Source: Eubacteriales bacterium
GTDB lineage: Bacteria; Bacillota; Clostridia; Oscillospirales; SIG627
Reading direction: 5' to 3'
NCBI GenBank assembly: GCA_045594565.1
Contig: JAZNYT010000121.1
Span: 1-60,460 of the forward strand
Length of the DNA stretch: 60,460 bases
Shown here: piece by piece, positions 821-2,364 of the stretch
Numbering within the stretch: the first letter of the stretch is position 1
How the letters are laid out: each line of letters opens with the position of its first letter
The notes under the pieces: model-generated
Seen by the model: only the letters and a program-made list of their open reading frames with translations
Told to the model about the DNA's origin: nothing
Database searches by the model: none
Made by a program: the position numbers and the translations under genes

Positions 821-858
821 AAACAAAAACTGAGGTATAACACCTCAGTTTTTGTTTT
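819..858. terminator. Bidirectional terminator
   Basis: AAAACAAAAACTGAGG/CCTCAGTTTTTGTTTT between convergent genes. Confidence 0.75.
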
Positions 859-1513
859 CAGGGTATAATTCCCTCTCGGCTCTTTCACGAGCATCTACTG
901 CTTCTTCAAGGGTGGAGAAGGTGCCGAGATAATGCAGTTTATTGTTTTTGCGTATGTATGCCCGATATTTTCCGCTGCACATCTTGTAAACGCCTTTATG
1001 CCCCGATTTATTATTTTTAGGTATTCTTCTATTTACTGCCTGTTCTTGGCGATTTGCCCAGCGGCAATTATCTGGAGAATACCCACTTTCTACATTTATA
1101 CGATCTATTGTTAAATTATCCGCATAACCGTTAGCTAAACTCCACTCCATAAAATTTTGAAAACCGTTTTCTTTGTCAAGCCATTCCGAGCATATTTTTA
1201 TTCCACGAGCACCATAGTTTGGATAGGAATTGCTATTTTTATTATAGCATCTTACGTTCATACAGTGATAGATTCTGTATAACCTTGTTTTTTCCATTCC
1301 GTGCTTGGTTGATCGTTCCTTTCTTAAGCACCCGCAAGACCGTGTATCGCCTCGTATTAAGTTACTGCTATTTATAACTACTTCGTTTTGGCAATCGCAG
1401 AGACATTTCCAATATTGGTTATGCCCTTTTTTTCCTTTGGGAGTTGGAGCTGGTTCAATAACTGTCAGGCGACCGAATTTCCGACCTGATAGATCTATCA
1501 CATTACCATGCAT
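845..1513 (-). CDS. HNH-like endonuclease with C-terminal AP2 domain
   Basis: WKCLCDC/SCGC zinc motif, TIDRIN...GYSPDNCRW...N nuclease motif, AP2-like GVY..KYRAYI..LGTF..EEA; paralog of 23356-24039. Confidence 0.85.
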
Positions 1514-1647
1514 ATAAATTCCCTCTCATTCTCTTTGATTTGACAACGAGGGGACAATTTCTCGTGTAGTTGCCTAAGAACCTCTTTCTTTTCCCTCTCG
1601 GTTAATCTCTTCCAAAGGCTTACGATTTCTCTATCAATATTATTCAT
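1498..1647 (-). CDS. Micro-ORF, 49 aa ([13 protein letters not shown] family)
   Basis: Read by hand: [30 protein letters not shown]...; ATGA overlap with upstream peptide; two paralogs in the window. Confidence 0.7.
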
Positions 1648-1751
1648 TTTCTCCACCCTCTCTGATGAAGATATAAGACGAGAGCTTTTAAGAGTTTGGA
1701 AATACCAAGCCCAATCATCACGATTGATAAAGTTAATAAAAATTCTTTCAT
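1644..1751 (-). CDS. Hydrophobic peptide A2, 35 aa
   Basis: AAGGAG RBS; [35 protein letters not shown]; paralog at 38241-38357. Confidence 0.7.
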   Translation of the reverse strand: MKEFLLTLSIVMIGLGISKLLKALVLYLHQRGWRK

Positions 1752-1760
1752 AATTACTCC

Positions 1761-1789
1761 TTGATTTTTTATTTTGTTTATGCTAAAAT
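1761..1789 (+). promoter_or_regulatory. Antisense sigma70-type promoter
   Basis: TTGATT-17 nt-TAAAAT with TG extended -10; identical at 38367-38395. Confidence 0.65.
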
Positions 1790-1795
1790 CAAGAG

Positions 1796-1937
1796 GAGAG
1801 GAAATCTCCTCTTGATTGTCGGTTGTTTTACAACCATTTAGCTATCAGGGTAAGTATAACCCCGACAATGAGGTCGACCAAACCGTTTACAATTAACTCG
1901 GCTAAGTTAATTTCGGTCTTGGTTGACCTTTTTCTTT
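1796..1937 (+). ncRNA. Predicted antisense RNA covering peptide A1
   Basis: Starts after the antisense promoter; ends in long hairpin AGGTCGACCAA...TTGGTTGACCT plus T-tract; ends approximate. Confidence 0.5.
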
Positions 1938-1944
1938 TCCTCAA
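1828..1944 (-). CDS. Hydrophobic peptide A1, 38 aa (type I toxin-like)
   Basis: GGGGGGTG RBS, TTG start; MRKRKRSTKTEINLAELIVNGLVDLIVGVILTLIAKWL; paralog at 38436-38552. Confidence 0.7.
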   Translation of the reverse strand: MRKRKRSTKTEINLAELIVNGLVDLIVGVILTLIAKWL

Positions 1945-1980
1945 TTTTATCACCCCCCTCTCTTAATTTCTGTATATATT

Positions 1981-2080
1981 ATATCACTATTTTTAGTGAT
2001 AATCAATAGACAAATATCACAATTTTTAGAGATACTATTTGTTTATTTTGTCACTTGTTTTAGTGATAAAATAGTGATAT
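1981..2080. promoter_or_regulatory. Palindromic operator array between divergent genes
   Basis: Repeated (T)ATCACT-n-TTTTAGTGATA-type palindromes between A1 and the HTH gene. Confidence 0.55.
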
Positions 2081-2112
2081 TATATAAGTACTAAATGTTA
2101 AGGAGTGTTAAA

Positions 2113-2316
2113 ATGTCTATAAAATACGATAAACTACTGAAATTGATGGAAGAAAAAGGTGTCACTTCATACACCATAAAGAAAGACAATATTATAGGTC
2201 AAGCAACTTTCAAAAAAATTAAAGAAGGCGGAGATATTGATACAAGAACTATTGATAAGCTCTGCAAGCTCTTGAGCTGTCAGCCCGGTGACTTATTAGA
2301 ATATATTGAAGACTAA
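2113..2316 (+). CDS. Cro/C1-type HTH regulator
   Basis: AGGAG RBS; YDKLLKLM...IDKLCKLLSCQPGDLLEYI, HTH_26-like. Confidence 0.85.
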   Translation: MSIKYDKLLKLMEEKGVTSYTIKKDNIIGQATFKKIKEGGDIDTRTIDKLCKLLSCQPGDLLEYIED

Positions 2317-2323
2317 CAACAAA

Positions 2324-2364
2324 ACAAAGCCCTCTCAAATGAAAAAATTTTTGAGAGGGCTTTA
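2324..2364. terminator. Bidirectional terminator
   Basis: AAAGCCCTCTCAAA/TTTGAGAGGGCTTT. Confidence 0.75.

Follow-up and report, generated by a model that had tools for sequence, protein, structure and literature searches.

A recurrent small-gene cassette with a CapR-HNH-AP2-type terminal gene, present twice in a Clostridia prophage

A moron, in the concept of Hendrix and colleagues, is an autonomous promoter-gene-terminator unit inserted between phage genes, and the prophages of Bacillota also carry type I toxin-antitoxin loci such as Fst/RNAII, TxpA/RatA and BsrG/SR4. Phage homing endonuclease genes are usually portrayed as lone selfish genes, and anti-defence loci as operons of small genes with a repressor. 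In this study, we analyzed a complete 60,460-bp contig (hereafter the window) from a 2.0-Mb metagenome-assembled genome (MAG, 91% complete) of an Eubacteriales bacterium. The window carries a prophage of ~43 kb with two copies of a cassette, Block A (822-2360) and Block B (23340-25047), in which a homing-endonuclease-type gene is consistently part of a cargo-carrying operon that appears to be repressor-controlled. Two described groups of proteins are relevant to its terminal gene. The IPA-HNH homing endonuclease genes combine an atypical HNH domain, which is overlooked by Pfam HNH_3, with an AP2 domain (Barth et al. 2023, PMC10448857). CasPRs are CapR zinc-finger and AP2 proteins that need C33/C35/C37/C56/C58 and R138/R149; they are found in acr loci of Bacillota prophages and silence cas genes by binding within them (Sanderson et al., bioRxiv 10.64898/2026.02.23.707548).

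Shared layout of the two blocks and its recurrence in relatives

Block A lies between the endolysin gene on one side and an HTH_31/DUF6514 gene pair on the other, and has the following parts (aa, amino acids; ORF, open reading frame):

822-852, bidirectional intrinsic terminator that closes Block A (A-run, 7-bp GC-containing core stem lengthened by A/U pairs, T-run)
845-1513, minus strand, HNH-AP2-type gene (222 aa), the last gene of the Block A operon
1498-1656, minus strand, s52_A, basic helical micro-protein of 52 aa (WKxLTExEKKEVL)
1644-1751, minus strand, s35_A, peptide of 35 aa whose N-terminus forms a membrane helix and whose tail is basic
1761-1789, plus strand, antisense promoter TTGATT-17-TAAAAT with extended -10 (TG)
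1796-1945, plus strand, predicted antisense RNA of ~150 nt over the s41 ORF, with a long 3' hairpin followed by UUUUUCUUUU
1828-1953, minus strand, s41_A, 41-aa ORF, basic at the N-terminus and with a membrane helix at the C-terminus
1978-2075, divergent promoter region, with P(-) TTGATT-17-TATAAT running from 2006 to 1978
1983-2000, 2016-2033 and 2050-2067, three operator-like palindromes of the ATCAC(T/A)-N6-(T/A)GTGAT type
2113-2316, plus strand, HTH_A, 67-aa Cro/C1-type regulator divergent to the operon (Pfam HTH_26, E=9e-14)
2325-2360, bidirectional terminator between HTH_A and the endolysin gene (z = -6.0 and -7.2)

Block B lies between the portal gene and a MuF-like gene and consists of:

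23340-23372, 13-bp hairpin 3' of HNH_B, with no U-run on either strand
23356-24039, minus strand, HNH_B, the paralogous CapR-HNH-AP2-type protein (227 aa from the ATG at 24039)
24015-24173, minus strand, s52_B, 52-aa micro-protein with a 25-nt overlap with the start of HNH_B
24188-24403 (65-aa form, 24188-24385), minus strand, s71, acidic alpha/beta cargo protein of 65-71 aa
24415-24443, plus strand, antisense promoter TTGATT-17-TATAAT (with TG)
24444-24479 and 24490-24527, plus strand, two hairpins, each followed by a T-run, of the antisense unit (24415-24534)
24533-24646, minus strand, s37, acidic helical 37-aa ORF that heads the Block B operon
24695-24802, divergent promoters, P(-) TTGACT-17-TATAAT from 24723 to 24695 and P(+) TTGACA-17-TATAAT at 24774-24802
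24832-25047, plus strand, HTH_B, 71-aa HTH_26/HTH_3 regulator that ends 4 nt from the portal stop codon

A sequence-only reading of the window had proposed that the two blocks share one layout, and all the elements it listed were found where it had placed them. The two endonuclease-type proteins are indeed paralogous (60% identical, E=2e-96), and in both blocks the start of the large gene is overlapped by a micro-ORF with the WKxLTExEKKEVL motif, the two products being 61% identical. Both antisense promoters lie by the ribosome binding site (RBS) of the next gene, as had been described for a TTGATT-17-TA[AT]AAT promoter; in Block A the -35 box abuts the AAGGAG of the 35-aa ORF. One block lies past the lysis genes and the other in the head operon, again as proposed. 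Both divergent regulators, described as XRE, are HTH_26 genes, and the first ORF of the operon, given as ~38 aa, is 41 (or 38) aa in Block A and 37 aa in Block B. Bidirectional terminators were confirmed at both ends of Block A, but the hairpin of Block B has no U-run. This hairpin probably lets late-operon transcription read through, and its lack of a U-run makes sense because late transcription has to cross Block B to reach MuF. At the DNA level, the homology between the blocks is confined to the stretch from the HNH stop codon to the start of the micro-ORF, and the two regulators, although both HTH_26 proteins, give no BLASTP alignment with each other. The final 16 nt of s52_A overlap the start of the HNH-type gene, whose RBS lies inside s52_A, and the relative reading frame of s52 and the HNH-type gene is identical in Block A, Block B and L006, the three loci compared. 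A programmed frameshift that would join s52 to the HNH-type gene was rejected: no slippery site is common to the overlaps (13-25 nt), and every HNH gene is preceded by an RBS of its own and starts at its own ATG.

We took the contexts of close homologues (P0002-P0006, P0009, P0010, P0012, the same-genus genome G026 and a second copy in G051) and scored all their small ORFs against profiles of the window cassette parts. In what follows, WA, WB and WC denote the window copies in Block A, Block B and Block C (introduced below), and L-numbers denote loci of relatives. There are 12 distinct loci whose HNH protein is 53-66% identical to that of Block A or B (the two window blocks, L004/5, L006-8, L009, L010, L011, L012/13, L115, L276, L278 and L286), and all 12 carry the overlapping micro-ORF, which is 46-52 aa long, with a diverged 58-aa version in L004. 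The divergent regulator is an HTH_26 protein in 8 of the 12 loci and Arc/ribbon-helix-helix (RHH)-like in three (L012/13, L276 and L278, a 59-70-aa Arc/DUF6290-like protein); L011 shows none, its contig being cut ~430 nt upstream of the HNH gene. A second tally gave a divergent small regulator in ten of the 12 loci, with the remaining two truncated or not visible upstream. As far as the contigs reach, one to five variable small genes lie upstream of the micro-ORF. This cargo is s41 and s35 in WA, L010 and L115; the same pair with s71 in L006-8, or with a 42-aa and a 51-aa ORF in L286; s37 and s71 in WB; s37 alone in L009; and a 41-aa ORF with s71 in L012/13 and without it in L276. The cassettes were found at no fewer than four kinds of genome position: between portal and MuF (WB, L006-8), between lysis genes and int/att (WA, L012/13, L286), between tail genes and int (L009), and ahead of replication and terminase genes (L004). 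In addition, phage G051 carries two cassettes 22.4 kb apart (L006 and L286), like the window. Taken together, these results favor the earlier proposal of a recurrent cassette type over two unrelated free-standing homing endonuclease genes.

IMG/VR and the JGI metagenomes yielded only homologues of at most 53% identity, which served as an outgroup. None of the 160 loci with 37-53%-identical homologues, taken from IMG/VR and JGI/ENA metagenomes, carries s52, s35, s41 or s71, a similar HTH gene occurs in 3 of them, and solitary family genes were likewise seen for P0045, P0086 and P0018. Among 5.8 billion proteins (5.8e9), only 23 belong to the s52 family, and only nine members make up the s71 family; s52 and the DUF6514 neighbour have no relatives in IMG/VR, and s52 and s71 have none in cultured phages. 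Because s52 and s71 have so few members and the distant loci have none of these parts, the cassette is a rare, clade-specific and internally consistent architecture. Its carriers are a small group of temperate siphophages in ruminant-gut Clostridia.

The head-operon site is empty in relatives. Among 80 viral contigs with portals 62-75% identical to the window portal, 74 extend to MuF, and in all 74 the portal-MuF gap is 0-330 nt (in two the genes overlap by 7 nt) and holds no cassette genes, compared with a gap of 2,190 nt in the window. The sequence-only reading had named two findings that would refute it, homologous genes without these neighbours and the lack of empty-site relatives; neither was borne out, as the neighbours persist beside close homologues and relatives with an empty site exist for the head-operon position. 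An essential packaging HNH of the HK97 gp74 type was ruled out by the same 74 relatives, which have no gene at all at this junction. In L006 of G051, another version of the cassette sits flush in the portal-MuF junction, 8 nt from the portal stop and 37 nt from the MuF start, and in L014-17 a more distant family member stands there alone. For the lysis-side site, the same-genus genome G032 (L293, G032:C20, 5013-5958) was considered as an empty Block A allele and rejected: it has the HTH_31/DUF6514 pair beside the same att-like sequence, but an unrelated 959-aa gene comes next and there is no prophage. Possibly the pair is part of the integration site or of some other element. The lysis-side cassette L286 (G051:C304) lies between two diverged 87-aa HTH_31 copies (1503-1766 and 3785-4048), and these duplicates may be a footprint of cassette acquisition.

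Between cassettes at different genome positions, some parts resemble each other much more than the HNH genes do. In WB, s71 shares 94% identity with its L011 counterpart and s37 shares 97% with that of L009; HTH_A matches the L010 and L286 proteins at 94% identity, and the DNA from s35 to the HTH gene is 81% identical to that of L286. The HNH proteins beside these near-identical parts are just 53-66% identical, and sequence comparison thus indicates that modules are shuffled among cassettes at different genome positions. In the tree of the HNH proteins, which is a star, there is no grouping by genome position, and WB pairs with L011 and not with L006. The s129 gene, which lies between Block B and MuF, is 74% identical to a gene of L006 in G051 (6650-7039) that is located after MuF, which shows that the gene order around the cassette is rearranged.

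The prophage is flanked by an exact 128-nt direct repeat (1-128 = 42893-43020). This att-site repeat begins at the first base of the contig and may therefore extend further; its 3' end is a tRNA-like T-arm/acceptor sequence (GGGGTTCGAATCCC...), and ARAGORN reported 0 tRNA and 0 tmRNA genes across the entire window. Megablast of 8-kb pieces of the window against 50,697 phage records gave 0 close DNA relatives. The late prophage genes are on the minus strand. The neighbouring genes are:

337-820, HTH_31/DUF6514 pair, att-proximal, on the other side of Block A from the endolysin gene
2377-3351, endolysin gene, flanking Block A
21116-22861, minus strand, MuF-like gene (581 aa), flanking Block B
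22911-23300, minus strand, s129, 129-aa gene between the cassette and MuF
25052-26551, portal gene, flanking Block B
41913-42941, tyrosine integrase gene of the prophage

The MuF-like head protein has a C-terminal extension of ~150 aa past the MuF domain, with an HICASCQG motif. The MuF homologue of L014 has a Pfam Ntox50 toxin domain, and the window protein may be a MuF-fused polymorphic toxin.

Operators, antisense linkers and small proteins

The three palindromes of Block A are 18 bp each, are spaced 33-34 bp apart and overlap both divergent promoters. In L286 the half-sites are kept and the spacers are altered, and because half-sites persist while spacers change, the palindromes look like an operator signature. 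The earlier description of the cassette as self-regulated is thus plausible in as far as operator-like palindromes with conserved half-sites lie over the divergent promoters. In Block B, P(+) matches the consensus at 12 of 12 positions, and TCAA-N7-TTGA-like motifs are repeated at 24720-24758 in the divergent promoter region.

The window contains 17 promoter-like matches compared with 9.4 ± 3.0 in shuffled sequences, and a single match is not significant. Since lone matches reach just ~2x the shuffled expectation, the case for the promoters rests on their conservation in relatives. Two kinds of linker were distinguished. The type 1 element, in the s41/s35 interval, is kept in WA, WC, L006, L010 and L115 despite diverged flanks. 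Its boxes are a -35 TTGATT or TTGACT, a spacing of 16-17 nt and a -10 TAAAAT, TATAAT or TATTAT, mostly with TG; the promoter is identical in WA and WC, the -10 box is TATAAT or TATTAT in L006, L010 and L115, and the hairpin shows compensatory substitutions across loci. The type 2 element, which is ~100 nt long and lies before s71 or s52, differs very little among WB, L009, L276 and L278, whereas the L012 version has diverged. Hairpin 1 stays paired through five double (compensatory) changes, and an unrelated hairpin takes the place of hairpin 2. Because the type 2 hairpins have T-runs on the antisense strand only, the sense direction (operon and late transcription) is predicted never to be terminated, and antisense transcripts are predicted to be cut short. 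The antisense RNA predicted for Block B is 40-90 nt long (fold z = -5.2). That of Block A folds at -50.3 kcal/mol (z = -6.2), ends in a hairpin and U-run, and is antisense to the entire s41 ORF. Both strands of the terminator at 822-852 fold at -24 kcal/mol (z = -7.4 and -7.9). No Rfam family was detected at gathering scores in the whole window, and the two non-coding regions gave nothing meaningful at E<=1.

At the sequence level, s41 thus pairs a small membrane peptide with a conserved cis-encoded antisense promoter and a predicted RNA that ends in a terminator. An alternative start of s41_A, the TTG at 1944, would give 38 aa and has better spacing to a GGGGGG Shine-Dalgarno sequence. The Fst-toxin-like motif of s41_A is weak: it matches Pfam Fst_toxin PF13955 with E=0.0026 and 18.1 bits (cut-off 36), and NCBIfam NF033608 with E=0.001 and a score of 18.9, under the cut-off of 26.

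Relatives of cassette parts also lie elsewhere in the window, outside the blocks:

38241-38561, minus strand, Block C, a second copy of s41 (38436-38561), hairpin, antisense promoter and s35 (38241-38357), directly 3' of a cro-like gene
40700-40816, minus strand, stand-alone 38-aa s52-like ORF, the third family member in the window (hidden Markov model E=4e-13), ~250 nt upstream of hicA (40205-40453)

Block C is 82-86% identical in nucleotides to the unit of Block A, and ~80 nt around the promoter are perfectly identical. It has no adjoining HNH gene, and as a third copy of the two-peptide/antisense-promoter unit it had been omitted from the earlier comparison; s35 homologues are also found in L006, L010, L115 and L286. 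The two-peptide and antisense unit of Block A, present after cro as well, is an independent module, and the layout is a composite. The antisense promoter of Block C aims back through cro (38580-38780) to a CI-like repressor gene (38960-39280), which recalls the position of lambda P_RE. ORFs nearly identical to the stand-alone 38-aa s52-like ORF adjoin the integrase gene in L011, L012 and L276.

The micro-protein s52 is basic and not acidic, and the acidic cargo proteins have a pI of 4.6-5.0. The AlphaFold2 (AF2) model of s71 (pLDDT 96) is a small beta-beta-alpha-beta-beta-alpha domain, for which neither PDB nor BFVD gave a significant fold match; known anti-defence proteins gave none either. 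In another phage, a 70% homologue of s71 opens an early Rad52/SSB operon that has no HNH gene in its vicinity. The cargo proteins matched no known family in PADLOC, PHROGs, Pfam or NCBIfam.

The terminal protein and competing readings of the cassette

The HNH-AP2 proteins of the window are best described, from profile and model comparisons, as CapR zinc finger, atypical HNH core and C-terminal AP2 proteins. Both paralogues match PHROGs phrog_374 "HNH endonuclease" (E=8e-84 for A and 3e-89 for B). Pfam gives a weak AP2 match, and its HNH models give no match to the large proteins. A profile of 43 homologues matches the AP2 structures WRI1, ERF and TEM1 (best E=4e-6) and the HNH motif region of I-HmuI (1U3E, E=5.6e-4), so that an HNH (beta-beta-alpha-metal) core is detectable. 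The AF2 model of the 845-1513 product (pLDDT 90.7) places a beta-beta-alpha element at residues 135-160, followed by an AP2 fold (~170-216), with a Foldseek probability of 1.00 to the TEM1 AP2 domain. The residues of the HNH core are D137-R138...N149...N161, where D137-R138 aligns with the catalytic Asp-His pair of I-HmuI, in that enzyme Asp74 and the general base His75. Within the N-terminal 65 residues, C37, C39, C41, C60 and C62 are invariant or nearly so, and the central domain is strongly conserved. The protein has more than 2,000 homologues; family members in lytic phages adjoin helicase and ribonucleotide reductase genes, often with 2-3 per genome, in agreement with the IPA-HNH class (PMC10448857).

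The cysteine spacing is that of C33/35/37/56/58 in CasPRs and in gp22 of Listeria phage A006, a 165-aa protein annotated "HNH endonuclease" whose gene immediately follows AcrIIA1 in the interval from the lysin gene to attP. Because gp22 carries C33/35/37/56/58 as well as R138/R149, it is of the CasPR type by the published criteria. The window protein and gp22 align at both ends (BLASTP 1e-20, hhalign 2.4e-28), and gp22 lacks the ~95 central residues (~70-160, the HNH-like core) of the window protein. The window proteins are therefore full-length CapR/atypical-HNH/AP2 relatives of CasPRs that bear the nuclease core.

It was observed directly that the parts are homologous, that the architecture recurs, that empty sites exist in relatives and that the cassettes are mosaic. 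Our preferred reading, which we hold at about even chances, is that both blocks are moron cassettes gated by a repressor, with a homing-endonuclease-type gene as their basis. Four constant parts would define it: a small divergent DNA-binding regulator, of the HTH_26 type here and of the ribbon-helix-helix type in some relatives; an operon with one to five tiny genes that differ from copy to copy, either acidic proteins of 37-71 aa or the s41/s35 membrane-peptide pair; a basic micro-protein of 46-52 aa (58 aa in L004) that overlaps the start of the last gene; and a CapR zinc finger/atypical HNH core/AP2 protein of ~220 aa. The linker between cargo genes would combine a strong promoter on the opposite strand with hairpins that terminate the antisense direction alone. 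Steps of repression, antisense transcription, nuclease action and mobility can be proposed from the sequence. The regulator, bound to palindromic operators over the divergent promoters, would keep the operon low in the lysogen, and the antisense units would lower expression further, the Block A antisense RNA acting over the s41 peptide gene in the fashion of a type I toxin-antitoxin system. The terminal protein would be a sequence-specific homing-type endonuclease of the AP2-associated HNH class that favors inheritance of the cassette in mixed infections, and recombination at the conserved linkers could shuffle the cargo. We prefer this reading for five reasons: s52 and the CapR-HNH-AP2 protein form an invariant core; a divergent repressor of its own accompanies the cassette even where the regulator has another fold; cargo genes can be exchanged; one of the copies sits at a classic homing-endonuclease site, which relatives have empty; and the HNH-like core is strongly conserved here, although members of this lineage that purely bind DNA no longer have it.

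Several findings weigh against this preferred reading. The canonical general-base His is absent from the HNH core of the window protein (R138), and Arg stands at the His75-equivalent position in 119 of the 120 top homologues, likewise in family members from lytic Enterococcus, Vibrio and Bacillus phages and temperate Streptococcus phages. Given this Arg and the lack of any Pfam HNH match, cleavage is putative for the whole family, and the missing His is the weak point of the inferred nuclease activity. The earlier suggestion of endonuclease mobilisation stays a conjecture in view of this Arg and of the close kinship to the CasPRs, DNA-binding anti-CRISPRs that are not nucleases. For the lysis-side site, the search turned up no cassette-free relative. 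The HNH tree does not resolve beyond a polytomy, and cassette-free members fall within it. The regulators are generic, with relatives of HTH_A up to 84% identical in genomes without any cassette part. Since s71 and the s41/s35 unit are also found with no HNH gene beside them, accretion at a hotspot may account for part of the architecture. Finally, context and homology also suit a CasPR/acr-type locus.

This last point leads to the reading of the blocks as anti-defence (acr-like) loci, in which the acidic proteins would be immunity inhibitors, the HTH or RHH protein an Aca-like autorepressor, and the terminal protein a CasPR-like silencer that binds a host or competitor gene without cutting. 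We regard it as unlikely but as the main rival. The cysteine spacing equals that required for CasPR activity (bioRxiv 10.64898/2026.02.23.707548), gp22 follows AcrIIA1 in an acr locus and aligns at both ends, and Block A has the same lysis-to-att position as gp22. The small acidic cargo, the s71 homologue at the head of an early operon elsewhere and the missing general-base His point the same way, and Aca repression of acr operons is well established (PMC9410906). However, the ~95 strongly conserved HNH-like residues that CasPR-type proteins lack are kept, the cargo matches no known family, and the confident model of s71 has no significant match in PDB or BFVD. In addition, no Cas1 was detected in the 91%-complete host MAG, the regulator is divergent whereas it is downstream in classical acr-aca operons, two of the cargo genes encode membrane peptides, and one cassette lies within the head operon, as is typical of homing endonuclease genes. 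The preferred and the anti-defence readings are compatible, as a homing gene could carry anti-defence cargo. A broader proposal, to which we give rather little credence, is that the cassettes are homing-endonuclease-driven, probably anti-defence islands ancestral to CasPR/acr loci, in which loss of the HNH core led to DNA-binding CasPR silencers at the same operon position in Listeria, and in which the antisense linkers serve as recombination joints for cargo swapping, integron-like without an integrase.

Two other readings are less likely than these. It is improbable that the cassette is a toxin-antitoxin, abortive-infection or exclusion module with the HNH-like protein as a DNA-damaging effector, s52 as its neutraliser, the HTH protein as control, and the membrane peptides with the antisense RNA as a type I addiction unit that stabilises the prophage. 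Such a module could account for the small upstream ORF that overlaps a larger gene in a relative frame that is fixed across the three loci compared, as in antitoxin-toxin operons, for the third s52-like ORF upstream of hicA, and for the s41/antisense-RNA layout with its weak Fst-like matches. It fits poorly with a basic s52, with stand-alone 38-aa copies that have no nuclease partner (L011, L012, L276), with distant HNH family members that have no such partner (0/160 loci) and with the 0 PADLOC matches, and it leaves the insertion into the tight portal-MuF junction unexplained. Quite improbable, in turn, is the view that there is no functional unit and that ordinary free-standing homing-endonuclease-like genes sit in two moron hotspots among unrelated neighbours, with chance promoter motifs in AT-rich DNA. 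The twofold excess of promoter-like matches over shuffles, the commonness of HTH_26 genes, mostly unlinked to HNH genes (118/401 genomes), the solitary distant HNH homologues, and s41/s35 and s71 apart from HNH genes would suit it. What speaks against chance is the overlapping micro-ORF in every close homologue, the divergent regulator in nearly all of them even when its fold differs, antisense promoters and hairpins that hold position, spacing and pairing across diverged loci through compensatory changes, and the same two-cassette arrangement in a second phage (G051).

Comparison with known systems

The ingredients of the cassette are known singly, as HNH-AP2 genes, CapR/CasPR proteins, morons, Aca-type control and type I toxin-antitoxin-like units. 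Their fixed combination, which joins an overlapping micro-ORF to antisense promoter-terminator linkers and an intermediate CapR-HNH-AP2 architecture, was not found described in the searchable literature. The analysis also brings out five tiny uncharacterised proteins, s52, s71, s37, s41 and s35.

Like morons, the cassette has its own sigma-70-type promoters and terminators and is inserted between genes that are adjacent in relatives, with one copy past the lysis genes; unlike them, it has a dedicated repressor, a conserved internal antisense linker and swappable cargo. The likeness to type I toxin-antitoxin loci is limited to Block A and Block C and does not extend to Block B. It consists of the s41 membrane peptide, the conserved cis-antisense promoter and predicted structured RNA of ~150 nt over the ORF, and the weak Fst matches; the differences are scores under the family cut-offs, the C-terminal position of the s41 membrane helix, and a unit within a longer operon with s35. 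Compared with an acr-aca operon, the window has a regulator and operator-like palindromes, but the regulator is divergent.

The window genes share with IPA-HNH genes (PMC10448857) an atypical HNH core unrecognised by Pfam HNH_3 and a C-terminal AP2 domain. Both also stand free between genes that are conserved in the phages, and genomes have several diverged copies of them; Block B occupies an otherwise tight junction. In contrast to IPA-HNH genes, the window gene always follows an overlapping micro-ORF of 46-58 aa and closes an operon of small genes that has a divergent repressor and contains antisense units. The window subfamily further differs in its N-terminal CapR-type zinc finger and in the Arg in place of the general-base His, and homing and cleavage would be putative there. 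With CasPRs (bioRxiv 10.64898/2026.02.23.707548; Listeria A006 gp22), the window proteins share the five-cysteine CapR spacing and the C-terminal AP2 domain, and both are encoded at the end of an operon of small genes in a Bacillota prophage, Block A being at the lysis-to-att position of the Listeria acr locus. The CasPR-type proteins of ~165 aa differ in lacking the HNH-like middle of ~95 aa that is conserved in the window proteins; moreover, the window cassettes have no known acr homologue beside them, the host MAG has no Cas1, and the regulator is divergent and not downstream.

If the terminal protein is an active nuclease, the cassette would show small accessory genes hitch-hiking on a homing element under tight control in a temperate phage. 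If it is only a DNA binder, the CasPR idea would extend to ruminant-gut Clostridia and to proteins with a degenerate nuclease core. Either way, the comparison provides a testable link between homing endonucleases and transcription-silencing anti-defence proteins.

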